Positions 11,578 through 37,957 of a DNA stretch of 64,000 nt are shown one piece after another. The stretch covers positions 160,001-224,000 of the forward strand of contig CAWCNJ010000008.1 of assembly GCA_963796955.1 (NCBI GenBank), read 5' to 3'. The stretch is from Endomicrobiales bacterium. GTDB taxonomy: Bacteria; Elusimicrobiota; Endomicrobiia; Endomicrobiales; JALOBY01. Below the pieces are notes generated by a model. That model was not told the DNA's origin. It saw only the letters and a program-made list of their open reading frames with translations, and made no database searches. The position numbers and the translations under genes are program-made. Every line of letters starts with the position of its first letter. Within the stretch, counting starts at the first letter, position 1.

Positions 11578-11606
11578 TTGCCAGCAGGCGCCGTTTTTTG
11601 TATAAT
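11578..11606 (+). promoter_or_regulatory. Sigma70-type promoter for bamA-lpx operon
   Basis: TTGCCA (11578-83), 17 nt spacer, TATAAT (11601-06) in an AT-rich intergenic gap. Confidence 0.7.
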
Positions 11607-11700
11607 CAACAGGATAAAATATCATACTTGAAACTAATAATAGCATAGCACAGTCTAATAATCGATTGAATTTGCTATCACAAATTTTAGAGGGGCTCTA

Positions 11701-14853: not shown

Positions 14854-14875
14854 TTTTTTAGCAAGGGACCGACCA

Positions 14876-15904: not shown

Positions 15905-15937
15905 AATATCGATCCAACGACACATGCAAGGAAAATA

Positions 15938-17271: not shown

Positions 17272-17286
17272 CTACCGGAGCATAGC

Positions 17287-18075: not shown

Positions 18076-18872
18076 GCGTAATAGGCCTGATCGCCGGCAA
18101 TGGCCGGTTCCCATTCCTCGTCGCTGAAGAGATACGCAAAAGGGGCGATTCTGTCGCCCTTCTTGCGTTAAAGGAAGAGACCGATCCGGCCATTGAAAAA
18201 CTTGCCGACTCCTGCGCTTGGATATCTGTGGGACAATTTCAGAAGTTGATAGATTTTTTTCATTCAAAACAGGCCGGGACGGCGATCATGGCCGGGCAGG
18301 TCAAGCACGCCCGGCTATTCGACGGACTGGCCCTTGACTGGCGGGCGTTGAAGCTGCTCGGGAAGTTGGTCAATAAAAAGACCGACAGTATACTCGGTGC
18401 AGTCTGCTCTGAACTTGAAAAAGAGGGGATCAAACTGCTTCCCTCGCATCAATACCTTTCGCACCTGCTGCCCGAAAAAGGCATCCTGGCGGGACCGAAA
18501 CTTTCCAAAGAAGAAAAGGAGAACGTCGCGTTCGGGCATGAAACCGCTAAGGCGATAGCAGGGCTCGATATCGGCCAGACCGTGGTCGTTAAGGATATGT
18601 CGGTGATAGCCGTTGAAAGCATTGAAGGTACCGACGAGTGCATCCGTCGCGCGGCACAGTATGCGAAAGACGGTGTCATTGTCGCCAAAGTCGCGAAACC
18701 GAAACAAGATTTCAGATTTGATGTGCCTGTAATAGGCATGAACACTATCAACACACTTAAAGAATGCAGGGCGCGCGCTCTGGCGATAGAAGCGGGAGCC
18801 ACCCTGATGATCGGCAAACCGGAGCTGCTGGCCGCCGCCGAGGCCGCAAAGATCACCATAATCGCGCTATAG
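18072..18872 (+). CDS. lpxI: UDP-2,3-diacylglucosamine diphosphatase LpxI
   Basis: GLIAGNGRFP, DIGQTVVV, AVESIEGTD, KPKQDFRFDVPVIG; follows lpxA. Confidence 0.93.
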   Translation: MSVIGLIAGNGRFPFLVAEEIRKRGDSVALLALKEETDPAIEKLADSCAWISVGQFQKLIDFFHSKQAGTAIMAGQVKHARLFDGLALDWRALKLLGKLVNKKTDSILGAVCSELEKEGIKLLPSHQYLSHLLPEKGILAGPKLSKEEKENVAFGHETAKAIAGLDIGQTVVVKDMSVIAVESIEGTDECIRRAAQYAKDGVIVAKVAKPKQDFRFDVPVIGMNTINTLKECRARALAIEAGATLMIGKPELLAAAEAAKITIIAL

Positions 18873-18883
18873 AAGGAAACACC

Positions 18884-19978
18884 ATGCTTGGACTTGTTCA
18901 CCCGATCGTAGGAAGCGAAGAAAAGAAGGTGCTTAACGAGATCATTGATTCCCGCATGCTGGCAGCTGGAAAATATGTAACTGAGTTCGAGAATGTCTGC
19001 GCCCGGGCTTTTAACGCGAAACACTGCGTGGCAGTTTCGAACGGCACGACCGCACTGCACGCGGCGTTACTGGGCGCCGGTATCAAGACGGGGGATCAGG
19101 TGTTGACGACTGCGATGTCCTTCATCGCGACGGCCAACAGCATACTGTACTGTCAGGCAAAACCGGTTTTTGCCGACATAGATCCTGCAACGCTGAACAT
19201 CTCCCCGGAAGCTGCAGAAACGATCCTGAATAAAAATAAAAAAATAAAAGCGATACTGCTGGTACACCTGTTCGGCGTGCCGTGCGATATGGCGGCGTTC
19301 ATAAAACTTTCCAGAAAATATAAGGTCAAACTTATTGAAGACTGCGCCCAGGCCCACGGCGCTGCGTTCGAGGGGACCACCGTCGGGACCTTCGGCACAG
19401 CATCCGCATTCTCGTTCTATGCCACAAAGAATGTGATGTGCGGCGAAGGCGGGATCGTGCTTACCGCAAGCAGCGCCGTAGACAAGAATGTCCGCAGCAT
19501 CATCAACCACGGACGCAGCGAGCATTCGACCCATACCATTCTCGGTTATAATTACCGTCTGACGAACCTCGCCGCCGGTATCGGCATTGTGCAAATGGGA
19601 CACCTGCAGGAATGGAACGCTGCACGGCGCTCGAACGCGGCCTATCTGACGGAGCGTCTCCAGAAATTCTCTTTCTTAAAAACCCCGGTGATCCCCTCAA
19701 ATTGCACCCCGGTATTTCACCAGTACACCATCAGAGTCAAGCCCGGGGTCAGGGAACGGCTGATGAAGCATTTACATTCCAGCGGCGTAGGGTGCGGCAT
19801 ATATTATCCGGTACCGATGCATCTGCAGCCGTTGTATAAAAGAATGGGCTATAAAGCCGGACTGTGCCCGGTCGCCGAAAAAGCGGCTAAAGAGGTACTT
19901 TCTATCCCGGTGCATCCGGCACTGACAGCGTCAGACCTGAAACTCATCATCGATACATTCGCCTCCTTTAAGGCTTAA
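18884..19978 (+). CDS. gnnB: DegT/DnrJ/EryC1/StrS sugar aminotransferase, GnnB-like
   Basis: SNGTTALH, EDCAQAHG, FSFYATKN (PLP Lys), GEGG, GYNYR; ATG 18884 with AAGGA SD; family certain, GnnB assignment from position in the lpx operon. Confidence 0.8.
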   Translation: MLGLVHPIVGSEEKKVLNEIIDSRMLAAGKYVTEFENVCARAFNAKHCVAVSNGTTALHAALLGAGIKTGDQVLTTAMSFIATANSILYCQAKPVFADIDPATLNISPEAAETILNKNKKIKAILLVHLFGVPCDMAAFIKLSRKYKVKLIEDCAQAHGAAFEGTTVGTFGTASAFSFYATKNVMCGEGGIVLTASSAVDKNVRSIINHGRSEHSTHTILGYNYRLTNLAAGIGIVQMGHLQEWNAARRSNAAYLTERLQKFSFLKTPVIPSNCTPVFHQYTIRVKPGVRERLMKHLHSSGVGCGIYYPVPMHLQPLYKRMGYKAGLCPVAEKAAKEVLSIPVHPALTASDLKLIIDTFASFKA

Positions 19979-19979
19979 C

Positions 19980-20915
19980 ATGGAAAAACTCACTACGGCT
20001 GTCATCGGCGTCGGTTCACTGGGGCAGCACCACGCCAGGATACTGGCACAACATCCTGCTTCCTCCTTAGCAGCTGTGGTCGACAATGACCTGAAACGGG
20101 CTGAAAAGATCGCATTGGGTCTGCATGTGCCTGCCTATAAAGACCATCATGAGGTGATAGGGAAGGCGCGCCTTGCGGTAATAGCCGTCCCGACACCGTT
20201 CCATTTCTCAATCGCAAAAGATCTGATAGAAGCCGGTATACACGTTCTGGTGGAGAAGCCGTTCACGGAAACCGTCGAGCAGGCGAAAGAACTTATCGCG
20301 CTCGCCGAATCAAAGGGTGTCATACTGCAAGTCGGACTGATCGAGCGTTTCAACCCTGCTGTTATCAGCGCCCAGGAATATATCAACAAACCAAAATTCA
20401 TAGAGGTCAACAGGCTTGGGCCGTATGATCCGCGGACCAGCCACATCGGGGTCGTTATGGACCTTATGATACACGACATTGATATCGTATTATCACTGAT
20501 AGGGGAAAAAGTGGTCTCGGTAGAGGCTCACGGCGCCTCCATTTTGTCGGAGCACGAAGACATCGTTAAAGCACGGATAAAATTCGAGGGCGGTTGTGTC
20601 GCCGATATTTCAGCAAGCCGCGTCTCGCTGGAAAAATACCGCAAGATCAGATTATTCCAGGCCGATAGTTATATCTCCATTGACTACGCGGGAAAATCGC
20701 TGAAGGTGTACCGTAAGAAAAAACCCGTTGTAAAATCGTTATTAGACATCGAAGTGACCAGCCCAAAACTAAAGAACGACGAACAGCTCTTCCTGGAGTT
20801 GGACCATTTCATAACCTGTGTTATTGAAGGAAGAAAACCCGAGGTGACCGGCGAACACGGCCGGGACGCGCTGGAGCTGGCGCTTGAGATACTGAGGAAC
20901 CTGAATAATCAATGA
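19980..20915 (+). CDS. gnnA: Gfo/Idh/MocA NAD-dependent oxidoreductase, GnnA-like
   Basis: VIGVGSLG, HVLVEKP, ERFNPA, VVMDLMIHDID, ISASRVS; lies between lpxI/gnnB and lpxB. Confidence 0.8.
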   Translation: MEKLTTAVIGVGSLGQHHARILAQHPASSLAAVVDNDLKRAEKIALGLHVPAYKDHHEVIGKARLAVIAVPTPFHFSIAKDLIEAGIHVLVEKPFTETVEQAKELIALAESKGVILQVGLIERFNPAVISAQEYINKPKFIEVNRLGPYDPRTSHIGVVMDLMIHDIDIVLSLIGEKVVSVEAHGASILSEHEDIVKARIKFEGGCVADISASRVSLEKYRKIRLFQADSYISIDYAGKSLKVYRKKKPVVKSLLDIEVTSPKLKNDEQLFLELDHFITCVIEGRKPEVTGEHGRDALELALEILRNLNNQ

Positions 20916-21991
20916 ACCTTTTCATTTCCGCAGGCGATCACTCCGGCGATATCCATGCCGCGAACCTTATCAAGGCGGTCCGCGCGCGCGTCGGGACGGT
21001 GCTCGTTGAAGCGCTGGGCGGCGGGCAGTTAAAAGATGTCGCCGACAAGTTCGACGCGGATCTGGTGAGCCTTGGCGGTTTCGGGTTCTGGCAGCCGTTC
21101 AAACAATACTTTAAACTTAAAAAGATATTCAACGACTATATTGTCGAAGGTTGGAAAGAACACAGACCGGATGTTGTCGTGCTGGTCGATTATTATGGTT
21201 TTAATATCCATGTGGCCCGATACGCGAAAAAATGCGGGATCCCGGTTTATTATTTTGTCGGACCGCAGGTGTGGGCCAGCCGGCCCGGACGCATAGATCA
21301 GTTGAGGAAAACCGTAACAAAAATGTTGTTGATACTGCCTTTTGAGGAAAAAATATACCACAATGCAGGTGTGCCGGCCGTCTTCGTAGGCAACCCGATG
21401 ATAGATACGGTCCCGGAAGCCGTGACGCCGCCGGAACAGGGCACGCCCTATATAGGTTTATTCCCCGGCAGCAGACCCAATGTTCTTAAGCGCCATCTGC
21501 CCATCCTGCTTAACACAGCCCGGATACTTGAAAATTCAACCCACGCGCGCTTCGCCTTCTTCGCGTCAAAAAATACCGCCGATCTTTTTGCCGGTCTGCC
21601 CTACCCGGTAATAATCGAGGATAATTATAACGAACGCCGGAAACTTACCCTCGCGATCACCACGTCCGGCACGGTAAGCCTGGAAAATGCATTGCTGGGA
21701 ATACCGATGATCGTAATGTACCGGCTCTCATCATTTAATTTCGCGCTTGCCAAGCTGCTCGTTTCCATTCCTTTTATCGCGATGGCGAACATTCTAACCA
21801 ATAAACAACTGGTGCCCGAACTTATACAGGACAAGGCCAACCCGAAGGATATTTCCGCCGCAGCGCTGCGCTATTTGAACGACCACGCGTATTTCTCTGC
21901 GGTCAGGAGCGAACTTTTGACTATCCGAAAGGACTTGGGAGCTCCCGGCGTATACGCCCGGGCGGCACAGATCATACTGGAGAATACATGA
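20912..21991 (+). CDS. lpxB: Lipid-A-disaccharide synthase
   Basis: ISAGDHSGD, VDYYGFN, PQVWASR, LPFE, FPGSR, SGTVSLE, PELIQ. Confidence 0.95.
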   Translation: MNLFISAGDHSGDIHAANLIKAVRARVGTVLVEALGGGQLKDVADKFDADLVSLGGFGFWQPFKQYFKLKKIFNDYIVEGWKEHRPDVVVLVDYYGFNIHVARYAKKCGIPVYYFVGPQVWASRPGRIDQLRKTVTKMLLILPFEEKIYHNAGVPAVFVGNPMIDTVPEAVTPPEQGTPYIGLFPGSRPNVLKRHLPILLNTARILENSTHARFAFFASKNTADLFAGLPYPVIIEDNYNERRKLTLAITTSGTVSLENALLGIPMIVMYRLSSFNFALAKLLVSIPFIAMANILTNKQLVPELIQDKANPKDISAAALRYLNDHAYFSAVRSELLTIRKDLGAPGVYARAAQIILENT

Positions 21992-23703
21992 TATACAAGC
22001 GCTTGACCGGCTACATCGACGAACATATTGGACGCTTTTCCCTGGCCCTGATATGTATGATACTTTTTTCAGCCATAACCGGCGCCAGCATGTGGCTTAT
22101 CAAGGCGGTGATCGACAAGATATTCATCGCGCGCGACATGCATATGTTGTACCTGATAATTATCTTGATACCGTCGATGTACCTGTTTAAAGGCATAGCT
22201 GCCTACGGACAGAATTACCTTATGTTCTATATTTCGCAGAACATTATCCTCAAGATCCGCGGACAGCTGTTCGCCAAACTGATAACTCTTTCACACGATT
22301 TTTATGTGCGCAATTCCTCGGCTAAAATGATGGCCCGGGTGACGAACGATGTCACGCTGCTGCAGACGGCCCTTTTTCAGGTGCCGCCCGCGATCTTTCG
22401 TGACGGTTTCACCATCATCATTATGATCGGCGTGGTGTTCTTCCTTAACTGGAAATTCGCGACGATCACGCTGCTGATATTCCCGTTAGCCGCGTTGCCG
22501 CTGGTATCGTTCGCAAAAAAAATGCGCGCGGCCTCCCGCCAGGGCCAGCACCAGATCTCCGAGATCTACGCGGTATTGCAGGAAGCTATGACCGGCATCA
22601 GCGTTATCAAAACCTTCGTGCAGGAAAACAACGAGATAGAACGGTTCAAGACCGAGAACGACAAATACTATCACGCGATGCAGAAATTCATCAGGGTCGA
22701 CGCCCGGTCGAGCCCGATCATGGAATTTATGGGGGCGCTCGGTGTCTCGTTCATTATCTGGTACGGCGGAAGGGATGTGGTCAGCGGGGTCTGGACCGCA
22801 GGCTCGTTCTTCGCGTTCATGACGGCGGTATTCTCTATCTACCAGCCGCTCAAGAATTTCGCCAGCACTAATTCGATTTTGCAGCAGGCCATGTCCGGCG
22901 CTGAAAGGATATTCAGTCTTCTCGACGAAAAACCGTCTATCGTTAATGCTGATGGTGCGGTGACCCTGCCGCCTTTCAAAGATACTATCGCCTTTGAAAC
23001 TGTGACATTCTCATACCAGCCTGAAAGAGTTGTCCTTGAAAAATTCTCATTGACCGTCAAAGCAGGCGAAGCGATCGCACTGGTCGGCCCTTCGGGTTCC
23101 GGGAAAACCTCTATCGCCAACCTTATACTTCGCTTCTACGATCCTCAGGGCGGGAAAGTCACTATCGACGGACACGATATTCGCAGCGTCACGCTGGAAT
23201 CCCTGCGCGGACAGATAGGTGTCGTGACCCAGGATGTGATGCTGTTCAACGATACCATCGCGTATAATATTTCGTATGGTAACCGCAGCGCCGGTACGGA
23301 AGGAGTGATAGCGGCAGCTAAAGCCGCTAACGCCCACGAATTCATCTTGAGACTGCCGCACGGCTATGATACGGTTGTCGGCGAAAGAGGGGTCCGTTTG
23401 TCCGGCGGCGAACGCCAACGCCTGGCGATCGCGCGGGCCGTGCTTAAAAACCCGCCGATCTTGATACTGGACGAAGCGACCAGCGCCCTGGACGCGGAGT
23501 CTGAAAAACTGGTACAGGCGGCCATAGAACATCTTATGCAAGACCGTACGACCCTTATGATAGCTCACCGGCTTTCAACGATCAGGCGGGCAGACCGCAT
23601 CATCGTATTGGATAAAGGCGCTATCGTTGAAGAAGGAACGCACGAAGAACTGGTAAAGAACGAAGGTGTCTACTCGCATTTGCATAACCTGCAAATACTT
23701 TAG
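21988..23703 (+). CDS. msbA: Lipid A export ABC transporter, MsbA-like (TMD+NBD)
   Basis: Six-TM ABC membrane domain, GPSGSGKT, LSGGERQR, ILDEATSALD; follows lpxB. Confidence 0.88.
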   Translation: MIYKRLTGYIDEHIGRFSLALICMILFSAITGASMWLIKAVIDKIFIARDMHMLYLIIILIPSMYLFKGIAAYGQNYLMFYISQNIILKIRGQLFAKLITLSHDFYVRNSSAKMMARVTNDVTLLQTALFQVPPAIFRDGFTIIIMIGVVFFLNWKFATITLLIFPLAALPLVSFAKKMRAASRQGQHQISEIYAVLQEAMTGISVIKTFVQENNEIERFKTENDKYYHAMQKFIRVDARSSPIMEFMGALGVSFIIWYGGRDVVSGVWTAGSFFAFMTAVFSIYQPLKNFASTNSILQQAMSGAERIFSLLDEKPSIVNADGAVTLPPFKDTIAFETVTFSYQPERVVLEKFSLTVKAGEAIALVGPSGSGKTSIANLILRFYDPQGGKVTIDGHDIRSVTLESLRGQIGVVTQDVMLFNDTIAYNISYGNRSAGTEGVIAAAKAANAHEFILRLPHGYDTVVGERGVRLSGGERQRLAIARAVLKNPPILILDEATSALDAESEKLVQAAIEHLMQDRTTLMIAHRLSTIRRADRIIVLDKGAIVEEGTHEELVKNEGVYSHLHNLQIL

Positions 23704-23710
23704 GAGCTCC

Positions 23711-24700
23711 ATGAAACGATTTCTGTTAGCGGTATTGCTGATCTCAGCCCTTATAACAAATGTGTTAGCGCGCCCTCAATCTCCGTTGGCCTACAATGCG
23801 TTCGATGGTATTGCCCCGGGCGGACGGTCGCTTGGTATGGGGCTGGCAGCGGCCGCGGTGGGGAATGACCCTGCCGACATATACTTCAATCCGGCGGGCC
23901 TTGCGCTTCTTAAAGACGATAACGTTCTGGGTTTGTCATTTGAAGCGGCCCGTCAAAGCAGCTTGAGCACGGATCAGTTGTTCTCCAATGAGACATTAAA
24001 GAACACCAACCTGACGCTGATAAGCCTCTGTAACTCAAAAGGGGCTATTTCCTGGAGGCCGATGGCTTCGTACTCCGTCTCGACAACGACCGTTAACGGT
24101 GGTTTTTCCAGCACAGAAGTGCATGTAGACGAATTCACTCTTTCCGCAACACAAACGGATGATAAGATAACGAACGGGCTGAACCTGTCGTACCTTTACG
24201 GCCGGGTTGCCCAGGCCGGCATAGACAACGGCACACCGTCGGCGAATATCGCTGACGGCAACGGTTTCTCCCTGGGTTATGGACTATTGTATAATGTGTC
24301 ACCCATGTTCCGCCTGGGGATCGATGCCGATAACATCGCGGCCTTTATGTGGTGGGACGATTTTGAGACCCAGCAGCTGCCATTCGTATTACGCGCGGGT
24401 TTTGCGTACCAGATAAGCAAATTCGTGACCTTCGCCTACGATTTCGATAAAAGGTATTACCGGGATCCGGTTCCGGCCCTCACTCAGAACCATTTCGGGC
24501 TGGAACAGAACCTGGGCGATATATTAAAGATCCGGGTCGGCATCTACGGTCCCGATATGAACGACCTTGAGGTAACGCACTACACCGCGGGTCTTGGCTA
24601 TACGCAAAACAATCTCAATTTTGACCTCTCAGGCGAGAAATACCGTGTGGATTTTACCGATGTCTACCGTATCGTCCTGGGCTTATCAGTCCCATTATAA
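23711..24700 (+). CDS. Outer-membrane beta-barrel, PorV/PorQ/FadL-like (UPF0164-type N-terminal motif)
   Basis: Signal peptide; GGRSLGMGLAAAAVGNDPADIYFNPAGLA motif; alternating beta strands; ATG 23711 with AGGAG SD. Confidence 0.7.
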   Translation: MKRFLLAVLLISALITNVLARPQSPLAYNAFDGIAPGGRSLGMGLAAAAVGNDPADIYFNPAGLALLKDDNVLGLSFEAARQSSLSTDQLFSNETLKNTNLTLISLCNSKGAISWRPMASYSVSTTTVNGGFSSTEVHVDEFTLSATQTDDKITNGLNLSYLYGRVAQAGIDNGTPSANIADGNGFSLGYGLLYNVSPMFRLGIDADNIAAFMWWDDFETQQLPFVLRAGFAYQISKFVTFAYDFDKRYYRDPVPALTQNHFGLEQNLGDILKIRVGIYGPDMNDLEVTHYTAGLGYTQNNLNFDLSGEKYRVDFTDVYRIVLGLSVPL

Positions 24701-27223: not shown

Positions 27224-27727
27224 ATGAAAGGGCCTGTCGCTGTTTATCCCGGAAGTTTTGATCCGCTCACCAATGGGCACCTGGACATAATTGTCAGGGC
27301 TACCCGCCTTTTTCCAAAAGTCATTGTAGCCGTAACCGATAATGCCAACAAAAATCCTACGTTCTCAGTGGACCAGCGCCTCAGCATGATACAGAGCGCA
27401 ACGTCCGGCCTTAAGTCCGTACGCATAGAGCGGTTTTCCGGCCTGCTGGTGCACTACCTTATAAAAACGAATGCTTCAGTGATCATCCGCGGCCTGCGGG
27501 CGGTCTCTGATTTCGAATATGAGTTCCAGATGGCGTTGATGAACCGGCGTCTAGATAAGATCGCGGAAACGGTATTCCTGATGCCCGACGAATCGTATAC
27601 GTATCTTTCATCCCGTATGGTCAAAGAAGTCTACCGCCTCGGCGGAGACGTCCGAGGGCTGGTGCCGGTACATGTCGAAAAATACCTGCGTGAGAAATTC
27701 CGCGTAAAGAACAGGGAGAGCCTTTGA
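27224..27727 (+). CDS. coaD: Pantetheine-phosphate adenylyltransferase
   Basis: YPGSFDPLTNGHLDI, RGLRAVSDFEYE, SSRMVKE. Confidence 0.97.
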   Translation: MKGPVAVYPGSFDPLTNGHLDIIVRATRLFPKVIVAVTDNANKNPTFSVDQRLSMIQSATSGLKSVRIERFSGLLVHYLIKTNASVIIRGLRAVSDFEYEFQMALMNRRLDKIAETVFLMPDESYTYLSSRMVKEVYRLGGDVRGLVPVHVEKYLREKFRVKNRESL

Positions 27728-29358
27728 GCCTTGCCGGCCTTAAGAAACGACTGGGGGATATTCTTGTCGAGGTCGGTATCATCACCTCCGAACAGCTGAG
27801 CGACGCCCTGGAGATACAAAAACGCACCGGCGGGAAACTGGGCGCCATACTCTCGCAGATGGGCGCCATCAACGAAGAGGTCATGCTCGCCTTTCTCGGT
27901 AAACAGTGCGGCGTCTCCTATATTTCTCTTTCCGAATACGGCGTTATACCCCAGGAAGTCATACATACCGTGCCCAAAAGCATCGTGCGGCGTCAAAACC
28001 TGATACCGGTTCGTATCAACGGACAGATCGTGACCGTGGCGATGGCCGACCCCTTCAATATTTTCGCGATCGATGATATCAAACTCACCACGGGACTGGA
28101 CGTGCAGGTGGTGATCGCTCTTGACGACGACATTAAGAAAGCCATCGATACCTATTACGCGGTATTTTACGAATGCGATGAATTATCCGGCAAGGAAATG
28201 CTTCCCGATGAAGACATTGTCAATTATGTGCTCTCGCCGGGTGTAAAAGCCGGCTCTTCTGCCGTGTACATTGAACCGCAGGAAGAAACCCTGCGCATCC
28301 GCTACCGGACCAACGGTATGCTGGAGCAGCAGTCACCCATCCCCCGCTCTTATTACTCTTCATTATCCTCGAAATTAAAATCGCTCGCCGGGCTCTCCGC
28401 GGCGGCACCCGGTACGGCCTGTAAAGGTTTTTTCAAACTGACGGTATCCGGTATCGAAACCACGATCCATATCTCTTTCCTGCCGACCATCGCGGGGGAC
28501 CGCATCGTTCTTAAGCTTTCCCGGGACAATGAAGCGCTCCGCGACCTCAATCAGATGGGCTTTGAGCCGGAGACTGTCTCGGTATTCATTAAGAACCTGG
28601 AAAAGGCCAATGGGATGATCGTTATCACCGGCCCCAACGACTCGGGGAAAACCAGCACTCTGTATGCGGCCATTCATTACCTTAACCACCCCGACTGCAA
28701 TATCATGACGATAGAAGAACGTATCGAATCGCTGATACCCGGGGTAAACCAGATACAAACGGAGCCGGAAAAAGCATTAACGGCGGCCGGTATCTTACGT
28801 TCTTTGAAGGTTCAGGACCCGGATGTGCTGATGATCGAAGAGCTCTCCGATCCGGAATGCGCGGCCGCGGCCATATCGGCAAGCCTGACGGACAAACTGG
28901 TTTTAACGGCGCTGCCAACCTCAACCATAAATGAAACCTTAACCCAATTCTATTACCTCGGCGTGGACCCGGCGGTGGCTTCCCAGGGCATTTCAATGAT
29001 CGTCAACCAGCGCCTTATACGGACCTTGTGCCCAAAATGCAAGGAAGCATACGAAATACCCGGCTACAACCTCATTTCTGTCGGGGTTCAGGAAGAACTT
29101 CCGGAAAAAATGAAGTTGTTCAAACCGAAAGGCTGTCCTTTTTGCCACCACAGCGGCTACAGCGGCCGCACCGCCGTGCATGAACTGTATGAATTCGATA
29201 AGGAATTGCGCAGGTCTATCGCCGAAAATCCACACAAACTGGATAGTGAAAGATTTTTCACCAAGCACCGGATCCTTTCCCTGCACGAGGCCGTGTGGCG
29301 CAAAGTGAAATACGGTGTTGCCGATGTTGAAGAGTTGTTAAAGATCACCAGGAACTAG
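27724..29358 (+). CDS. pilB: PilB/GspE-family ATPase with N-terminal MshEN domain and degenerate catalytic motifs
   Basis: RLGDILVEVGIITSEQLSDALEIQ (MshEN), VAMADP, Walker A GPNDSGKT, tetracysteine CPKC...CPFC; sits in the pilB slot before pilT-pilC. Confidence 0.85.
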   Translation: MSLAGLKKRLGDILVEVGIITSEQLSDALEIQKRTGGKLGAILSQMGAINEEVMLAFLGKQCGVSYISLSEYGVIPQEVIHTVPKSIVRRQNLIPVRINGQIVTVAMADPFNIFAIDDIKLTTGLDVQVVIALDDDIKKAIDTYYAVFYECDELSGKEMLPDEDIVNYVLSPGVKAGSSAVYIEPQEETLRIRYRTNGMLEQQSPIPRSYYSSLSSKLKSLAGLSAAAPGTACKGFFKLTVSGIETTIHISFLPTIAGDRIVLKLSRDNEALRDLNQMGFEPETVSVFIKNLEKANGMIVITGPNDSGKTSTLYAAIHYLNHPDCNIMTIEERIESLIPGVNQIQTEPEKALTAAGILRSLKVQDPDVLMIEELSDPECAAAAISASLTDKLVLTALPTSTINETLTQFYYLGVDPAVASQGISMIVNQRLIRTLCPKCKEAYEIPGYNLISVGVQEELPEKMKLFKPKGCPFCHHSGYSGRTAVHELYEFDKELRRSIAENPHKLDSERFFTKHRILSLHEAVWRKVKYGVADVEELLKITRN

Positions 29359-29366
29359 GAGAATAT

Positions 29367-30434
29367 ATGCTTAATATGCAGGATCTGTTGATGCAAATGG
29401 GTGAAAAAAAAGCCTCCGATATGCATATCACAGCGGGGTTGCCGCCGATGCTGCGTATCGACGGGGAAATGGTACAGACCCAATTTGAGAAACTGACCCC
29501 GGACGTCTGTCAGCGGTTGATCTATTCCCTGCTGACGGACTCTCAAAAAGAAAAATTCGAGGCAACGAGCGAACTGGACCTTTCTTTCGGCATTAAGGGT
29601 GTAGGGCGCGTACGTATGAATGTTTTCCGGCAGCGCGGTTCGGTAGGCGCGGCCCTGCGCTCCATTCCGCAGCGTATCCTGACCTTTGAGGAATTGCATC
29701 TGCCGCCGGTCGTTTTCGATCTGATGAAAATGCAAAAGGGACTGATACTGGTTACCGGCGCGACCGGTTCCGGAAAATCCACGACACTGGCCTCCATGAT
29801 AGATTATCTCAATGAACACCGCACCTCACACATCCTGACGATAGAAGACCCGATCGAGTACGTGCATTTGCACAAACAATCCATCGTCAACCAGCGCGAG
29901 ATCGGTACGGATACCAGTACGTTCCCGGTCGCCCTTAAATATGTGCTGCGCCAGGATCCGGATGTGGTGCTGGTGGGAGAAATGCGCGACCTTGAAACGA
30001 TCTCTGCCGCCTTGACGATCGCTGAGACCGGGCACCTTGTTTTCGCGACGCTGCATACGACGGATGCCGCCTCTTCCATCAACCGCATTATTGACGTATT
30101 CCCGCCGCATCAGCAGGCCCAGATACGGGCGCAGGTCTCCTTCGTGCTGCAAGCTGTTTTCGCCCAGCAGCTGATACCGCAGGCGTCCGGATCGGGGAGA
30201 GTACTGGCCTGCGAAGTCATGGTCGTGAACTCCGCGATACGCAATCTTATACGTGACATGAAGGTGGAACAAATATACCTCGCGATGCAGACCGGCGGCA
30301 AATACGGCATGCAGACCATGAACCAGTCCCTGTATGACCTGTACAACAAAAGAGAGATAACTTACCAGACGGCCCTGGATAACAGTGCCGATCAGGATGA
30401 CTTGAAACGTGTTCTGGCGAAGATAGGCGTGTAA
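29367..30434 (+). CDS. pilT: Type IV pilus retraction ATPase
   Basis: ASDMH, GATGSGKST, TIEDPIE, LRQDPDVVLVGEMRD, TGHLVFATLHT, AIRNLIR, GMQT. Confidence 0.96.
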   Translation: MLNMQDLLMQMGEKKASDMHITAGLPPMLRIDGEMVQTQFEKLTPDVCQRLIYSLLTDSQKEKFEATSELDLSFGIKGVGRVRMNVFRQRGSVGAALRSIPQRILTFEELHLPPVVFDLMKMQKGLILVTGATGSGKSTTLASMIDYLNEHRTSHILTIEDPIEYVHLHKQSIVNQREIGTDTSTFPVALKYVLRQDPDVVLVGEMRDLETISAALTIAETGHLVFATLHTTDAASSINRIIDVFPPHQQAQIRAQVSFVLQAVFAQQLIPQASGSGRVLACEVMVVNSAIRNLIRDMKVEQIYLAMQTGGKYGMQTMNQSLYDLYNKREITYQTALDNSADQDDLKRVLAKIGV

Positions 30435-30449
30435 CGGAGGTCGACGACG

Positions 30450-31673
30450 ATGGCGAATTTTACTTACAAAGCCCGTAATACTGCCGGCGGAGAGTTGGTG
30501 GGCAGTATAGAAGCACAGGACCAGCGCGTCGCCATTGACCGCCTGCGGGCACAAAAACTTATCGTTCTTGAGATAGCTGAAGAGCAGTCGAACGCGTTCA
30601 TTACCTTTGTCAAAAAGATCAATCCCTTTAAACCTTCCGTCGGTTCAAAAGAGCTGGTCGTTTTTTCACGGCAGCTGGCGACGCTGGTTTCCGCGGGCGT
30701 ACCGATCGTGCAGGGCCTGGGTATCCTGGTGGACCAGGCCGACAGTTTGGTCTTTAAGAGCGTTATTCAGACTATCCGCGCCGATATAGAACAGGGTATA
30801 TCTATTACCGAGGCCATGAAAAAACATCCGGTAGCCTTTTCAGAGCTGTATGTGTCCATGATCAAGGCGGGCGAAATGGGCGGTATCCTGGATACGATAC
30901 TTGAAAGACTTTCGTCCTACCTGGAAGCCGCGGAAGAGCTGAAGGGCAAGGTTCAGGGGGCAATGGTCTATCCGGGTGTTATTTCCCTGGTGGCCGGCTC
31001 AATTACCCTGTTCCTTCTTATTTTTGTCATACCCACGTTCCAGACGATCTTTGCCAGTTTTGGCGCGACACTGCCGCTGCCAACGCGTGTTCTGATAGGT
31101 ATCTCTGTCTTTCTTCGAAAAGGTCTACTTGGTGTGATCGCGGCGCCGATCCTGTTGTTTTGGGCCTTTAAACAATACCGGAGCACCGCCAGAGGGCATT
31201 ATGTACTGGACGCGATCGCCCTGAAACTGCCGCTGTTCGGCATGCTGCTTAAAAAGGTCGCGGTCGCGAAATTCAGCCGCACGTTCAGTACCCTTATCAA
31301 ATCAGGGGTACCTATTCTTCAGGCGCTGGACACGGTGGGAAAAACGTCCGGCAACAAGGTCGTTGAACAGGCGATAAGCTCTGCCAAGGACTCTATCCGC
31401 GAAGGCGAGCGCATGGCGGCGCCGCTGAAGAAGACCGGTGTATTCCCTCCGATGGTGATACAGATGATCGCCATCGGTGAAGAAACGGGCAATCTGGACA
31501 CTATGTTAAACAAAATAGCTGATTTTTATGATCAGGAAGTGGACGTAAGCGTTAAAGCGCTCACCAGTATGATAGAACCGCTTATAATGGTCGCCATGGG
31601 CGTGGTGGTCGGCGCGATAGTACTGGCGATGTTCCTGCCGATGTTCGAGATGAGCCAACTGGCGAGCAAATAA
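30450..31673 (+). CDS. pilC: Type IV pilus platform protein (PilC/GspF)
   Basis: Two T2SSF domains: FSRQLATLVSAGVP, GEMGGIL, AMVYP, GEETGNLD, MIEP. Confidence 0.95.
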   Translation: MANFTYKARNTAGGELVGSIEAQDQRVAIDRLRAQKLIVLEIAEEQSNAFITFVKKINPFKPSVGSKELVVFSRQLATLVSAGVPIVQGLGILVDQADSLVFKSVIQTIRADIEQGISITEAMKKHPVAFSELYVSMIKAGEMGGILDTILERLSSYLEAAEELKGKVQGAMVYPGVISLVAGSITLFLLIFVIPTFQTIFASFGATLPLPTRVLIGISVFLRKGLLGVIAAPILLFWAFKQYRSTARGHYVLDAIALKLPLFGMLLKKVAVAKFSRTFSTLIKSGVPILQALDTVGKTSGNKVVEQAISSAKDSIREGERMAAPLKKTGVFPPMVIQMIAIGEETGNLDTMLNKIADFYDQEVDVSVKALTSMIEPLIMVAMGVVVGAIVLAMFLPMFEMSQLASK

Positions 31674-31771: not shown

Positions 31772-32227
31772 ATGAAAACGAACAAAGGCTTTACACTGAT
31801 CGAGTTGATGATCGTGGTCGCTATTATCGGTATTCTTTCCGCAATCGCAATACCGAAATTCGCCGACCTCATCCGTAAATCAAACGAAGGCGCCACGAAA
31901 GGCAACCTCGGTGCGGTGCGCAGCGCCCTGTCCATTTATTACGGTGAACAGGACGGCAAGTACCCGGCAGCGGGAGCAACCCTTGGCACGACACTTACCA
32001 TGGATAACGGCAAGTATCTCAAGGATATGCCAACCGTTTATTGCGCCGGATACACAGATAAAAATGCGAACGTAACGGTTCGCACGGCGACGGCAGCCAC
32101 TCAGAACACCGGCACGTGGGCATACCAGGATGCATTGCCTACTTCAACCGCTCAAAAACAGTGGGGTGATTTCTGGGTTGACATGAACAACACAGATTCA
32201 AAAGGCACCAACTGGGACGCGTATTAA
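31772..32227 (+). CDS. pilA: Type IVa major pilin
   Basis: Class III signal MKTNKG|FTLIELMIVVAIIGIL with E5 and P22; own promoter, strong SD and terminator are consistent with the major subunit. Confidence 0.9.
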   Translation: MKTNKGFTLIELMIVVAIIGILSAIAIPKFADLIRKSNEGATKGNLGAVRSALSIYYGEQDGKYPAAGATLGTTLTMDNGKYLKDMPTVYCAGYTDKNANVTVRTATAATQNTGTWAYQDALPTSTAQKQWGDFWVDMNNTDSKGTNWDAY

Positions 32228-32298: not shown

Positions 32299-33069
32299 AT
32301 GTTATTAATACTTGTGTTCTCTTTTTTTTCAGGCCTATGTTTTGGAAGCTTCGCAAATGTTTGCATCTACCGGCTTCAGAGAGATGAATCAATTGTCTTC
32401 CCCGGTTCGCATTGTCCCAAATGCAACGCGCCAATATTCTGGTACCACAACATTCCGATACTCAGTTTTCTTTTTCTGAGAGGCGCGTGCTCCTCCTGCA
32501 AAATGCCGATCTCATGGCGATATCCTTCGGTCGAGCTGCTGACCGGGTTTACTTTTGCCATAACCGTCCGCCAGTTTTGGCCCTCGCCATTTACCTACTT
32601 CGTTTTAGCTTTTGTGTTCATACTTATCGTTATAAGCGGCATTGATTTTGATACCCAGCTTATTCCCGATATTCTTTCGTATGGCCTTGCGGTGATCGGG
32701 CTGGCTGCCGCCCCTTCGAATTATCTGCTTGGCACAGGTATTGGGCACCGCATGATCTTCGCAAGTATCGGTGCTCTGTCAGGCGCCGGACTGCTGATAG
32801 CTGTCGCCTTTATCGGCGAAAAAATATTTAAGAAAGAGGCAATGGGCGGGGGGGATATAAAGCTTATGCTTGGGATAGGGGCATTTGTCGGCCCCGGGGG
32901 GCTGCTTCAGACAATATTCCTTGCCTCTCTGGCAGGAAGTGTCGCTGGCATCTGGCTTATCATCAGCGGCAGGATGAAACGCGGCCAATATCTTCCTTTC
33001 GGCCCCTGCCTTGCGTTAGGTGCATTTCTTACGCTTCTTCTGCCGGATCTGACCAAATTCGTGAACTAA
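32299..33069 (+). CDS. pilD: Prepilin peptidase/N-methyltransferase
   Basis: GSFANVCIYRL, SHCPKC...CSSC, IDFD, MGGGDIKL, LPFGPCL. Confidence 0.95.
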   Translation: MLLILVFSFFSGLCFGSFANVCIYRLQRDESIVFPGSHCPKCNAPIFWYHNIPILSFLFLRGACSSCKMPISWRYPSVELLTGFTFAITVRQFWPSPFTYFVLAFVFILIVISGIDFDTQLIPDILSYGLAVIGLAAAPSNYLLGTGIGHRMIFASIGALSGAGLLIAVAFIGEKIFKKEAMGGGDIKLMLGIGAFVGPGGLLQTIFLASLAGSVAGIWLIISGRMKRGQYLPFGPCLALGAFLTLLLPDLTKFVN

Positions 33070-33115: not shown

Positions 33116-34240
33116 ATGGCGTTATCAATCGGTTCCCTTAAGCTGCCCGACCTCCCCTTCCTTAAACCAAAGGATTGTTTTGCCGTTGACATCGGCTCAT
33201 CTTCCTTAAAAGTGGCATATTTACGTCCCAGCGGCAGCCGTTTCACCCTCCTGAAATATGGCGTATTGCCGATATCGGAAAATGCGGCAGACATTGCTCC
33301 CGCTGACAGAAGATCGGTATCAACCACCCGCCTGGGCGAGTTCCTCGCACGTGAAAAAATACTTACAAAGAACGTTGTCAGTTCCGTGAGCGGCAATCAG
33401 GTTATCGTCCGTTATGTACGCTTTCCCAAGCTTGGGCGCGAAGAACTGATGAAAACGATCCAGTTCGAAGCGGAGCCGTACATCCCGTTCGACATACGGG
33501 ACGTATTCCTGAGCTTCCACATAATCGGTGATATCGTCGAAGAAGGCCAGAAGAAGATGGAGACGATACTGGTCGCGTCAAAAAAAGATGTGGTGCAGTC
33601 CAAACTGGATATTTTGAACGACCTCAACCTTCGCCCGATCGTCGTTGATCTGGACGCGTTCGCGATCAAGAACGCCTACGAGCTTTCCATCGATCCTACC
33701 GTCCCCGAGACAGTTATGCTCATAAACATCGGGGCATCTACGACCAATATTTGCATTGTTGAGAACAATGTTCCACGCGTGGTGCGCGATGTTTTTATCG
33801 CGGGCAACGCATACTCAAAGGCCATACAAAGGGCGGCAGGCTGCGATTATAAGACAGCCGAAGACCTGAAAGCACGGTACAGTCTGCTGGTGACCGCCGA
33901 AGAAAAAGAACGAACGCTGGCTGAAAACCATAAGGAAGCCCTGCAGATATCGAATGCGATAACGCCGGTTACGAAAGAATTGCTCGGAGAGATCCAGCGT
34001 TCGCTGGATTTTTTCATCTCTCAAAACACGGAGCGCAGCGTCAACCGGGTATTGCTGTGCGGCGGCGGAGCTATGCTGAAGAACCTGGACCAGTATCTGC
34101 ACACCGAACTGCGCATCCCTGTTGAAATATTCAATCCGGCAGCGAAGCTTTTGGGCGGAGAATCTGTCCCAGAAAACATCGCGTCCCAATTGGCGGCCGT
34201 GATCGGCCTGGCTGCCAGACGGGAAAACGACATAAAATAA
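33116..34240 (+). CDS. pilM: Type IV pilus assembly protein PilM (actin-like)
   Basis: VDIGSSSLK, EAEPYIPF, INIGASTT, EIQRSLDFF, LCGGGA, AVIGLA. Confidence 0.93.
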   Translation: MALSIGSLKLPDLPFLKPKDCFAVDIGSSSLKVAYLRPSGSRFTLLKYGVLPISENAADIAPADRRSVSTTRLGEFLAREKILTKNVVSSVSGNQVIVRYVRFPKLGREELMKTIQFEAEPYIPFDIRDVFLSFHIIGDIVEEGQKKMETILVASKKDVVQSKLDILNDLNLRPIVVDLDAFAIKNAYELSIDPTVPETVMLINIGASTTNICIVENNVPRVVRDVFIAGNAYSKAIQRAAGCDYKTAEDLKARYSLLVTAEEKERTLAENHKEALQISNAITPVTKELLGEIQRSLDFFISQNTERSVNRVLLCGGGAMLKNLDQYLHTELRIPVEIFNPAAKLLGGESVPENIASQLAAVIGLAARRENDIK

Positions 34241-34241
34241 C

Positions 34242-34805
34242 ATGATCAAAATTAACCTCCTGCCATCTGAATCGATAAAAAAAGAGGAACGTAAGGAAAT
34301 ATTCGCATTGGCCTGCGTTATTGTTGTTATTTGCGTCGGGTTGGGCGGCGTTCATTACACAATGAAGCTTGCCTCTTACGCCAAGCTTAAACAACGCTCA
34401 GAGAAAACGCAGCAGGAGTTAGGCAAATACGAAAATATCGTCAAGCAGGTTGAAGCGCTCCAGGCCACTAAGAACGTTCTTGAGTCAAAAAAGACCGTCA
34501 TTAACACATTGATGACCAGAAGGCTCGTGTATGCTCGGTTCATGGAAGCGATCGTTGACATGCTGCCGGGCAATGTGTGGTTCAAGTCCCTGACAACAAA
34601 ATATGACGGGATCGATAAGCTGGCGTGTTCTCTTTCAGCCGAAGCCAGTGATAATTATGCGATAGCCGATACGATCACGGCCATGGCGGCATCGCCTGCC
34701 TTTTCGGGCGTCGAGTTGGGAGCGATAAACAGCCATTCGGGCCCAAAACAATCTTCGTCATTTACACTGACCTTTTCATATCAGGAAAAAAAGAAAAATG
34801 GATAA
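34242..34805 (+). CDS. pilN: Type IV pilus assembly protein PilN
   Basis: N-terminal INLLP motif, TM segment, coiled coil, LPGNVWF. Confidence 0.9.
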   Translation: MIKINLLPSESIKKEERKEIFALACVIVVICVGLGGVHYTMKLASYAKLKQRSEKTQQELGKYENIVKQVEALQATKNVLESKKTVINTLMTRRLVYARFMEAIVDMLPGNVWFKSLTTKYDGIDKLACSLSAEASDNYAIADTITAMAASPAFSGVELGAINSHSGPKQSSSFTLTFSYQEKKKNG

Positions 34806-35343
34806 GAAAACTCAGCAGAACCTTGCCGCTCTTATTATAGGATTCATTCTGGCGATTTTCTTTTATTATAAATTCATGATCGTTCCGCTGGACAAAAAGT
34901 ATTCCTCGGCCCTGGACGAACTTAAAGGTTCTCAAGCCAGGCTGTCTGACATGAAACACAGAGCACTTGAATTACCGAAACTGCAGGGGGAAATGAAGTT
35001 GCTGGAAAGCGAGGTCACCGACCTTGAAAAACGTCTTCCCAAAGACAGGGAGATACCCGGACTGCTGCGCACAATTACAAAAACCGGACAGCATTTCAGG
35101 CTCACCATCGTATCGATCTCTCCCGCCGCACAGACGACCGGCTCCAACTACAATGAGATCCCTTTCCAGATTTCCGCACAAGGGACGTATCATAATCTGG
35201 CAAGCTTTTTTGCAGAGATCGGCCAGGACCCCAGGATACTGAGCGTTAAAGACGTGAATTATAACGCTTCGGCACCGACAAAAGACAACCCCAATACCGT
35301 CAACGCCACGTTCACTCTTGTCGCGTATACATTTAAAGGATGA
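34798..35343 (+). CDS. pilO: Type IV pilus assembly protein PilO
   Basis: TM plus coiled coil, LPKDREIPGLL, GTYHNLASFF; position in pilMNOPQ. Confidence 0.9.
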   Translation: MDKKTQQNLAALIIGFILAIFFYYKFMIVPLDKKYSSALDELKGSQARLSDMKHRALELPKLQGEMKLLESEVTDLEKRLPKDREIPGLLRTITKTGQHFRLTIVSISPAAQTTGSNYNEIPFQISAQGTYHNLASFFAEIGQDPRILSVKDVNYNASAPTKDNPNTVNATFTLVAYTFKG

Positions 35344-35344
35344 T

Positions 35345-35806
35345 ATGACCCGGAAATATTATTTAATGATCGTTCCTCTTATATGTTTTTTTTCGGCGTG
35401 CGGACGGGATCCGGATGTTACTGATACCTACTATTCGCCCAAAGCCAATTCAGCAGCCGCCGCAACACCTGCAACAAAGAAAGAAGACGATGTATATGTG
35501 TATAAAGGCGGCCAGAAACCGGACCCTTTCGTACCTCAAAACACGGAAGCGCCCGTGGCCGCGGCAGGCGAGATCACTATTCCGAACCTTTCAAGTTTAT
35601 CGCTTAAAGGCATCTTTTCGCTTGGTAAACAAAGAACGGCCCTCATAGCGGGAACCGGAACGACCTATATACTTAAAGACAGCCGTCTTTACGATAGCCG
35701 TCAGCGTCTGATCAAAGGGATCTCGGGAGCCATTAAAGAAAATTCCGTGATCCTTATTGCACAGGATAAGACGATGAGAGAACTTAAATTACATGATAAA
35801 GAATAG
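35345..35806 (+). CDS. pilP: PilP-like lipoprotein
   Basis: Lipobox FSAC, DPF motif (KPDPFVP), LSLKGI...ALI; lies between pilO and pilQ. Confidence 0.75.
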   Translation: MTRKYYLMIVPLICFFSACGRDPDVTDTYYSPKANSAAAATPATKKEDDVYVYKGGQKPDPFVPQNTEAPVAAAGEITIPNLSSLSLKGIFSLGKQRTALIAGTGTTYILKDSRLYDSRQRLIKGISGAIKENSVILIAQDKTMRELKLHDKE

Positions 35807-35828
35807 ATTTTCAGGAGGCACATCCAAC

Positions 35829-37889
35829 ATGAGAAAAGTGATCATTTCCCTGGTGCTATGCGTCGTGGCAGCTGTGTCGATACGTGCGGCGGAATTCGTT
35901 ACTCTTGATAAGACCAGCGTGCAGGGCAATGATGTGGTCATGACTCTTTCCGGAACATCGAAATATCATGCGTTCAAAATAGCGAACCCTCCCCGGCTGG
36001 TGGTAGAGTTCACGAACACGGAACACAACGTAAAGAATCACGAGTTGGCGATCAACGGTGATCTGATAAAACGGGTCCGCAGCGGACAATTTCAAAATGA
36101 GCCGGTGAAGATCGCGCGGGTCGTTATAGATCTTAAACGGGCTTCCGAATATCAGGTAAAAAATAACGGCAACATCGTCACTGTTTCCTTTGGTAGTGAG
36201 ACGGCCGCTAAAGTCGCGGAAGAAAAGAGCACGGAAAAAGCGCCTGCCCCAACCCCAAAAAAGAAAACGATACCGGCAAAGGTAGCCGCTGCGCCGGTAG
36301 CGCCTCCGGCAGCTCCTCCTGCAACTACCCCGGCGACGACGCCCACAGCAGCGGTCCCCTCAACGACGGAGAAAAATGCTAAGGCCGCTGAGCCTGCAGC
36401 ACCGGCACCCGTGCCATCTGCCGCAAAGATAGAGACAGAACCACCGGTACAGGAAGTAGTCGCAAAACCTCTGGAAGAAGAAACGACCGCCCCGCAGGCA
36501 AAGGGGGCTCAGGATGAAGCGGTTACCGCGACCGTAATGCCGGGAACCGTGAAATCGGAAGTTCAGGTGGAACAGCCAAAACCCGTTGCAACACATTCAA
36601 AGACCGCGGCACCCGCCTCTACCAGGTCTGATACCGGTGTACGGCTGCCCACGATGCCGGTCAGTATAGATTTTCAGGATGCGGACATTAGAGATGTGCT
36701 GCGAGTACTGGCAATGAAAAGCGGCGTTAATATTATCTATGGTCCTGATGTTGAAGGCAATATTACGATCAAACTTGACAATGTCCCTTTCAATAAAGCA
36801 TTCGACACCATACTAACCTTGAAGGGCCTGGTCAGCCAGGAGCAAAGTTCCAACATCCTGCGCATTGCGACCCCTAAAAAGATCTCCGACGAAAGATCTG
36901 AAGCGGTAACGTTCACCAAGATATTTCCGTTAAATTACGCCAAGGCGGAAGAAGTAAAAGGGAACCTTGATTCTGTCAGGCAGGCGGAAGGCAGAAAAGG
37001 CAATATTGCGGTCGACTCCAGAACTAACAGCCTCATTATTACTGACACACCCGAAGGTCTTGATAATTGTCTTAAGATCATATCGGATTTGGACAAAAAA
37101 CCGCAACAGGTTTGTATTGAGGCGCGTATCGTGGAAATGGTCGTAAGCAATACGGATGATCTGGGTATACAATGGCAATACGCAAAGGAAACCCCGGGAA
37201 ACCCGACGACGACAGTCGGATTAACTAATGGAGTCGGCGCTGCCGCGGTAACGAACGGGTTTAACGGGTCTAATCAATCCCCTGTGACGGCAGCGGGCGG
37301 CGGCACCGGCGTAACACTGGGAGCCGCGCCTGTTAACGGCGCAATAGGGGCATTCTCTTTCGGCGTCTTCAAAAGCGGAGAGTTCGCTCTGAGCGCAACA
37401 TTGAACGCGCTGGCTCAGCGGGGACTTTCACGAATTTTATCCGCTCCAAAGATCACCACAATCAACAATCAGCAGGCGCGTATTTTAGTCGGTCAAAAGA
37501 TCCCGTATACAACGACCACGGTTTCTCAGGCCGGCTCAACACAACAGACCCAATTCCTTGATGTCGGGGTAAAAATGACCGTTATACCAACGATCAATGC
37601 GGACAAACGCATCACGCTCTACGTGAAACCGGAAGTATCCCTGTACGTGAGAGCGGATGCCGCCGGTCCCGTGATCGGATCGCGTGAGGCGGAAACAACA
37701 GTGCTGGTCAATAACGGCGATACCGTCGTGATCGGCGGCTTAATAACCGATCAGGACATCAAGAACGGTACCTCAGTGCCTCTGCTGGGCGACATTCCTA
37801 TTATTGGACATCTTTTCAGAAGGGACTTTAAGAGTAAAGACCGCACCGAACTGCTGGTATTCATCACACCCAGAATACTTGAAAATTAA
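35829..37889 (+). CDS. pilQ: Type IV pilus secretin with AMIN domain and long Pro/Ala/Thr linker
   Basis: AMIN (NPPRLVVEF...ARVVIDL), STN (SIDFQDADIRDVL), N3 (LNYAKAEE...DSRTNSLII), secretin C (VPLLGDIPIIGHLFR...ELLVFITPRI); AGGAGG SD. Confidence 0.95.
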   Translation: MRKVIISLVLCVVAAVSIRAAEFVTLDKTSVQGNDVVMTLSGTSKYHAFKIANPPRLVVEFTNTEHNVKNHELAINGDLIKRVRSGQFQNEPVKIARVVIDLKRASEYQVKNNGNIVTVSFGSETAAKVAEEKSTEKAPAPTPKKKTIPAKVAAAPVAPPAAPPATTPATTPTAAVPSTTEKNAKAAEPAAPAPVPSAAKIETEPPVQEVVAKPLEEETTAPQAKGAQDEAVTATVMPGTVKSEVQVEQPKPVATHSKTAAPASTRSDTGVRLPTMPVSIDFQDADIRDVLRVLAMKSGVNIIYGPDVEGNITIKLDNVPFNKAFDTILTLKGLVSQEQSSNILRIATPKKISDERSEAVTFTKIFPLNYAKAEEVKGNLDSVRQAEGRKGNIAVDSRTNSLIITDTPEGLDNCLKIISDLDKKPQQVCIEARIVEMVVSNTDDLGIQWQYAKETPGNPTTTVGLTNGVGAAAVTNGFNGSNQSPVTAAGGGTGVTLGAAPVNGAIGAFSFGVFKSGEFALSATLNALAQRGLSRILSAPKITTINNQQARILVGQKIPYTTTTVSQAGSTQQTQFLDVGVKMTVIPTINADKRITLYVKPEVSLYVRADAAGPVIGSREAETTVLVNNGDTVVIGGLITDQDIKNGTSVPLLGDIPIIGHLFRRDFKSKDRTELLVFITPRILEN

Positions 37890-37901: not shown

Positions 37902-37937
37902 AAAAACCCATAACGATGTACCGTTGTGGGTTTTTTT
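37902..37937 (+). terminator. Intrinsic terminator after pilQ
   Basis: AAAAACCCATAACG / CGTTGTGGGTTTTT stem (one G:U pair) ending in T7. Confidence 0.8.
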
Positions 37938-37957
37938 ATTGTCGGGAAAACCATAAC

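Follow-up and report, generated by a model that had tools for sequence, protein, structure and literature searches.

The pilB gene of the T4aP operon analysed here (pilB*, product PilB*) is, as read from its sequence, a PilB by descent and not an active PilB by the defining catalytic features. Our preferred explanation, which we consider probable, is that PilB* acts as a c-di-GMP-sensing pseudo-motor on a pilus driven by another protein, PilB2. Operon pilB is usually treated as the indispensable extension motor. The window, i.e., the whole stretch of 64,000 nucleotides that was analysed, is G000:C8:160001-224000, G000 being the source genome; genome designations and family names (f10, f12 and so on) are handles.

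The pilB* gene, its operon and its catalytic residues

The gene is an intact ORF of 544 aa whose TTG start overlaps the coaD stop and whose end lies 8 bases before the start of pilT. A preliminary description of this DNA had called the T4aP locus otherwise complete and had found the Asp box, Walker B and His box retained in the neighbouring PilT. Both points hold: the operon reads pilB-pilT-pilC-pilA-pilD-pilMNO(P)Q, with pilP named by position only since the lipoprotein at that place had no family match in the profile search, and the motifs of pilT are intact.

27224..27727, + strand: coaD-like gene, fixed upstream marker of the slot (PF01467, synteny)
27724..29358, + strand: pilB*, cognate operon PilB, read here as a pseudo-ATPase (Pfam T2SSE and MshEN)
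29367..30434, + strand: pilT, canonical retraction ATPase (TIGR01420, 496.9 bits, over cut-off)
30450..31673, + strand: pilC, platform protein (PF00482 twice)
31772..32227, + strand: pilA-like major pilin (N-methyl motif)
32299..33069, + strand: pilD, prepilin peptidase (PF06750 and PF01478)
33116..35343, + strand: pilM, pilN and pilO (TIGR01175, PF05137, PF04350)
35318..37889, + strand: pilP-position lipoprotein and pilQ secretin (pilQ TIGR02515, over cut-off)

PilB* occupies the same slot and falls in the same clade as canonical Elusimicrobiota PilB (SH-aLRT 99 for the slot clade), on a long branch (0.87). The N1D-N2D-CTD fold of PilB/GspE with its Zn tetracysteine was recognised by profile, model and alignment, the predicted model having a pLDDT of 86 and a TM of 0.90 to the 5tsh core. 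The TIGR02538 score of 378.8 bits lies below the curated cut-off of 675.65, while the canonical orthologue at L036 reaches 711.2. A foreign origin was rejected, GC and GC3 being in line with those of the neighbours, as was a frameshift or assembly artefact, the same substitutions occurring in L052 and L053. The promoter and terminator scan gave counts at shuffle level (16 vs 13.5; 20 vs 16.9). Upstream of recG-coaD-pilB*, positions 6949-24700 of the window hold a TamB-like gene (1542 aa), a BamA-like gene, msbA and genes that, from their motifs, we take to be lipid A genes; a 344-aa outer-membrane-like protein of this region had no Pfam match. The region 3' of pilQ (37916-44463) encodes a Wzy_C/TPR protein as well as large membrane proteins, of which one weakly resembles YfhO.

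Within pilB*, residues were numbered as in G. metallireducens PilB, mapped through alignment to 5tsg/6olj, and their roles (arginine fingers, Mg-binding, catalytic Glu, open interface) were taken from passages of PMC5424180 on that protein.

27748..27906, + strand: MshEN tandem c-di-GMP motif, residues 9-61 of PilB* (NF053729, 69 bits, cut-off 38)
27910..28161, + strand: second N1D subdomain, residues 63-146, presumed PilM-docking part (PF05157 match 63-146)
28468..28515, + strand: lost arginine fingers, R271 to H249 and R286 to K264 (alignments)
28630..28653, + strand: Walker A GPNDSGKT, lysine kept (K331 = K309), T327 replaced by N305 (alignment)
28726..28842, + strand: kept E335 (E357, Mg) and E373 (E395, catalytic) in an altered Asp box/Walker B (alignment)
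28888..28917, + strand: lost His box, H413 to K391 and H420 to P398 (alignment)
29020..29145, + strand: kept R433 (R455, open-interface contact) and Zn cysteines C436/C439/C471/C474 (alignment)

The substitutions quoted in the preliminary description (ASDIH to SSAVY, RRxPQDGR to APGTACKGF, TIEDP to TIEER, LRQDPD..GEIRD to KVQDPD..EELSD, TGH to TDK and TLH to ALP) are all present, and the corresponding motifs are intact in the three paralogues and the two PilT proteins that G000 encodes. They are not due to chance, each of 12 key residues being kept in 80/80 canonical homologues among the 120 best listed. The Zn tetracysteine is kept, as had been stated. That account was right on the motifs it quoted as replaced, but it understated what is retained, since the Walker A lysine, the Asp-box E357 and the catalytic E395 all have their equivalents in PilB*, which additionally keeps those of D398, E400 and T411. 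It also missed the most telling losses, the two arginine fingers of active PilB/GspE, which are absent from PilB* together with the His box; and Walker A, described as kept, retains its lysine but not the equivalent of T327. By alignment, the residues lost first are those for gamma-phosphate sensing and for closing of the subunit interface, and the open-interface contact is kept. From the published packing-unit description, in the passages available, the arginine fingers appear to serve the site of their own chain, therefore a neighbouring subunit would not rescue their loss. Some hydrolysis by PilB* may be possible because K309, E335 and E373 are kept.

The sensor part is better preserved. 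The tandem 24-residue motifs with a 5-residue spacer that characterise MshEN, as defined for V. cholerae MshE in passages of PMC5013675, are present, and 12/14 signature residues equal those of V. cholerae MshE. An exact match to the consensus had been claimed; this is true of the first half, whereas the second carries the conservative changes R38K and L54M. Docking to PilM by the second N1D subdomain is presumed from passages of a review. The RxRxDG hairpin gave no clear marker of oligomerisation, the D31K passages of PMC6858323 being ambiguous. G000 can presumably make c-di-GMP, because it encodes four intact GG(D/E)EF domains.

Conservation, repeated inactivation and deletion

An orthologue of pilB* is carried by 12/104 genomes of the order (Endomicrobiales), always between coaD and pilT or pilC. 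All 12 copies, from 8 families, are free of internal stops and frameshifts and all are degenerate. Compared with its two nearest relatives, to which it is 75-77% identical, pilB* has a pN of 0.145-0.153 and a pS of 0.77-0.78; as dS is saturated, pN/pS is given as a bound only, at most ~0.2. By its pN (0.14-0.15), the dead core is no less constrained than recG (0.196) or coaD (0.129), and less constrained than pilT (0.03-0.06). Given a low pN/pS and 12/12 copies that are degenerate without being broken, the state of pilB* is, by these comparisons, not a recent decay. Hence the suggestions that the ORF is under purifying selection and that related genomes carry likewise degenerate orthologues were borne out, and the opposite picture, canonical close relatives beside one decaying copy, is not what was found.

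Among the 120 best homologues listed (query included), 1-9 of 14 motif residues are kept in 40 and 13-14 of 14 in 80. Since the labels degenerate and canonical were set by this motif count, there is some circularity in the figures for the residues concerned; the labelling took no account of R271, T327, T411, R455 or the MshEN residues. In this set, the 40 degenerate copies keep T327 in 0, H420 in 3, T411 in 8, R286 in 12, R271 in 14, E395 in 26, E357 in 27, K331 in 33 and R455 in 40 cases, each of these residues being found in 80/80 canonical copies. One degenerate copy in 40, P0076, has all five family-invariant residues and lacks T327 and the His box. The 40 copies, full-length at 541-564 aa, group in a single clade (support 1.0) nested among canonical relatives, and this grouping was recovered from N1D columns alone (96/93).

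The domains have not fared alike. Of the positions invariant in canonical relatives, those kept number 16/16 in N1D, 11/43 in N2D and 26/78 in the CTD core. Among the 12 copies of the order, identity is 73% in the c-di-GMP motif, 64% in the rest of N1D, 30% in N2D and 42% in the core, against 61, 62, 69 and 77% for the same regions in 11 canonical outgroup copies; PilT identity across the 12 pilB* genomes is 80%. The motif of dead copies is thus conserved as well as or better than in active relatives, and their N1D has gained newly conserved positions. As judged from these identities, selection in pilB* favours the sensor part.

The preliminary description had treated the case as a one-off, which proved too narrow, the pattern being repeated phylum-wide. 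The slot was read in 76 genomes outside the order (72 author-picked of 148 with a match, plus four of f26 without one): 61 were canonical, 11 degenerate and in 4 the gene was absent. Of the 11, G305 was omitted from the tree: its locus L179 (G305:C26) is near-identical to the f12 locus of G144, yet the genome belongs to f24, and the contig is probably misbinned. An N1D-only tree was built from 23 dead and 44 canonical rows, with near-duplicates and most tandem f11 copies omitted and with one of the dead rows, L069, being a metagenome contig. It needs 4 changes, at least 3 of which are forced by strong branches. A single origin of all dead copies was rejected, one clade having a p-AU of 0.0002. 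W525 is common to the dead copies of f12, L069 and Endomicrobiales. All 23 dead copies keep the motif core and the four Zn cysteines, and T327, R286 and H420 are kept in 1, 2 and 1 of them, respectively. On this tree, operon pilB was inactivated at least three separate times in the phylum, with MshEN kept each time.

In six genomes, pilB* is deleted although the operon and PilB2 are retained. In G002 (95% complete) and G008 (99%), coaD runs directly into pilT and the downstream pilus genes are intact; in four f26 loci (L187-L190), pilB is absent from the slot between coaD and pilT. The series seen thus runs from canonical to degenerate, to eroded copies of 495-511 aa, and to deletion. Judged from these six deletions, the function of pilB* is dispensable. 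In f26, a phosphate acetyl/butyryl transferase gene, confirmed by Pfam for two of the four loci, takes the place of pilB in the slot. Other arrangements were seen: two tandem pilB genes in the slot of L168 and L219 (f11), the second with H413 changed to Q; a dead pilB followed directly by pilC, in an operon devoid of pilT, in L200 (G371); a strongly degenerate 506-aa PilB-like gene outside the operon and lacking the c-di-GMP motif at L192:4177-5697 (G251:C28); and, in Omnitrophota (L038:4541-8370), pilT, an MshEN protein of 149 aa that stands alone, and a tandem pair of pilB genes.

PilB2 and the other canonical paralogues

Searching G000 for further canonical pilB genes, a check that the preliminary description had proposed, yielded three canonical paralogues from separate old clades.

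G000:C8:552190-553950 (L002): PilB2, orphan canonical paralogue with the full catalytic set
G000:C8:551122-552177 (L002): GAF/HD-GYP-type phosphodiesterase gene after pilB2 (motif reads GFP)
G000:C8:124641-133136 (L001): another complete pilus locus (pilB-pilT-pilC-pilin-pilM...secretin), in which PilC, PilM and secretin are separate from those of the pilB* operon
G000:C4:74114-75847 (L003): third canonical PilB/GspE, an orphan adjoining a DUF3307 gene and signalling genes

The RLG and Q that mark the c-di-GMP motif are absent from PilB2, and its Asp box reads ENPVE, the D-to-N change being fixed. Its NF053534 (TfpB) score of 427.8 bits is below the cut-off of 850. In the PilB of the L001 locus, YLG replaces RLG, and this is the sole locus type found in f10; the L003 protein lacks the first MshEN subdomain.

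In the order, PilB2 occurs in 14/104 genomes, the 12 with pilB* plus G002 and G008, and the same 14 carry the operon; searching the other 90 revealed neither PilB2 nor pilB*, nor a close pilC. PilB2 is present in 22/22 dead-copy genomes and 6/6 deletion genomes, and in G144, G156, G188, G336 and G011 (completeness 96, 97, 89, 96 and 60%) no full canonical PilB/GspE other than PilB2 was found. From this co-occurrence, the deletions and the sole-canonical genomes, we infer that PilB2 serves the machine of the operon. The two further canonical paralogues in G000 count against this reading, as does the incompleteness of the genomes in which PilB2 stands alone. Across the phylum, PilB2 is found in 176/401 genomes, mostly beside an active operon PilB (slot N1D matches occur in 160/401); therefore, the possession of two motors is ancestral and the co-occurrence with dead copies is not specific. 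PilB2 identity is 80% where the operon gene is dead vs 59% in the outgroup, and that of PilT 80% vs 69%; a tighter constraint on PilB2 in the former genomes is suggestive only, the outgroup being a mixed set. A complex prediction of the PilB* and PilB2 cores scored 0.02, which speaks neither for nor against a contact.

The pair of pilB2 and the GAF/HD-GYP-type gene is conserved across the phylum. The phosphodiesterase orthologue is present in 10/12 pilB* genomes, pilB2 running off the contig in the other two, and it was not found in 3/6 dead-copy f25 genomes. It is missing from G002 and G008, where a malic-enzyme gene adjoins pilB2. That pilB* and the phosphodiesterase gene are generally lost together, as in 2/2 cases in the order, was rejected because this fails in f26, where 5/6 keep the gene. 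In G003:C1 (L148), pilB2 is split into overlapping frames of 194 and 405 aa, by an assembly error or a real break.

Explanations and comparison with known systems

According to the explanation that we prefer, the original extension ATPase of the operon would have been converted in place into a c-di-GMP-sensing pseudo-motor, and the pilus would be extended in trans by the old orphan PilB2. The sequence shows that PilB* has lost its gamma-phosphate-sensing and interface-closing residues, and that it keeps the sensor, the fold, the Zn site and the open-interface arginine. Comparison among genomes shows that PilB* is conserved yet dispensable; PilB2 would be the motor that remains. PilB* would bind c-di-GMP and probably still nucleotide, with little or no productive hydrolysis. 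A sensor and a docking domain on a fold that has no cycle would fit a regulator occupying the motor socket, for which, in passages of a review, extension and retraction motors are described as competing. The steps of which we are least sure are that ligand-bound PilB* might dock via N1D in the PilM/PilC socket, that, unable to cycle, it might shut out PilT and PilB2 like a parking brake, and that this brake might hold pili for adhesion at high c-di-GMP. This brake form takes about half of the weight that we give to the pseudo-motor explanation, the rest going to priming or delivering PilB2, or to signalling at the socket. More broadly, Elusimicrobiota might repeatedly have split the motor into a sensor-only operon pseudo-motor and a sensor-less motor in trans, with the pseudo-motor as a c-di-GMP-gated PilM/PilC plug locking the pilus against PilT and PilB2. 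We regard this generalisation as possible and rather doubtful; were the plug reading true, the motor would have a third state in addition to those of extension and retraction.

PilB* could instead be a c-di-GMP receptor off the pilus machine, signalling elsewhere, e.g., to surface-glycan genes 3' of pilQ, and found in the operon by history. This would agree with the concentration of selection on N1D and its new conserved positions, with the barely recognisable core of the f12 copies, with the Wzy_C/TPR and YfhO-like genes 3' of the operon, and with the precedent of M. xanthus, in which passages of a review have nucleotide-free PilB signalling for exopolysaccharide. Nevertheless, all dead-copy loci retrieved have the gene adjoining pilT or pilC, R455 is kept in 40/40 degenerate copies among the 120 best listed and no other partner was found, so that we hold such a role to be unlikely. 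The full series from canonical to degenerate, to 495-511 aa and to deletion in six genomes, together with the long branch of the window copy (0.87), would also suit a slow loss of a redundant gene after takeover by PilB2, in which pilB* is functionless and only folding cost restrains it. We consider this quite unlikely given the lack of stops and frameshifts in 12/12 genomes of 8 families, the 541-564 aa of the 40 full-length copies and the c-di-GMP motif being kept as well as or better than in active relatives; a core pN of 0.14-0.15, lower than the 0.196 of recG at saturated pS, largely refutes it. An active or slow extension motor of altered chemistry, with K/H replacing the arginine fingers, is very unlikely. 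K309, E335 and E373 are kept in PilB*, L052 and L053, K331 in 33/40 and E395 in 26/40 degenerate copies (120 best listed), and the predicted fold is intact, but the replacements differ among orthologues (E395 to D, N, K, V or G; R286 to Q, K, H, D or E), only 2/23 dead copies retain R286 and only 1/23 H420, and the gene is deleted in piliation-complete operons. The non-canonical extension motor offered in the preliminary description is likewise not supported, as orthologues lose different catalytic residues, erode further, or are deleted with the operon intact. The interpretation given there is otherwise borne out in part, and PilB* might act as a decoy, a brake or an activator.

The pseudo-motor explanation can be set beside several known systems. 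PilB* is like V. cholerae MshE, M. xanthus PilB, C. perfringens PilB2 and G. metallireducens PilB in domain order, Zn site, fold, c-di-GMP motif and slot before pilT-pilC (passages of PMC5013675, PMC11656802, PMC5424180). Unlike those MshEN ATPases, which are described there as active motors with the sensor in cis, PilB* has neither the arginine fingers nor the His box, and the motor seems to be a separate sensor-less gene. The pairing of an operon pilB with a phylogenetically distinct orphan paralogue recalls A. baylyi PilB and TfpB (passages of PMC8213720, PMC11656802), and the former source notes, in the part available, one species with the orphan motor only, like the six deletion genomes here. 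However, either motor alone extends pili in A. baylyi (PMC8213720, in part), whereas here the operon copy is degenerate and PilB2 is not TfpB. In the FimX-PilZ-PilB system of Xanthomonas and Pseudomonas and with the inhibitors CpiA and Aqs1, a degenerate accessory likewise senses for a non-binding motor (passages of PMC11656802, PMC8213720); the accessory there is a GGDEF-EAL or small helical protein, while here it would be a dead copy of the motor itself. Lastly, G. sulfurreducens GSU0435 ('mshE') is also a PilB-like gene directly upstream of a pilT, pilT3; passages of PMC5065972 call it a putative ATPase and say nothing of lost motifs. It is, however, additional to an intact pilB-pilT4-pilC operon, while in the present case the dead gene is the cognate one.

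No degenerate cognate PilB and none of these Elusimicrobiota proteins is described in the portions available of the open-access literature, including PMC10333796, though such proteins might figure in the MshEN tables of PMC5013675 or among the data of PMC6668835. The present analysis bears on how the operon gene was converted in place, on how often this happened, and on the orphan motor. A 2024 review (PMC11656802, in part) raises as an open question the role of N1D and c-di-GMP beyond catalysis, as well as two PilB paralogues on one machine. The active, dead, eroded and deleted copies form a natural separation-of-function series for the role of N1D and c-di-GMP binding apart from catalysis. 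Motor assignment by synteny or Pfam match can mislead, and the dead copies go under the database names PilB or ATPase.
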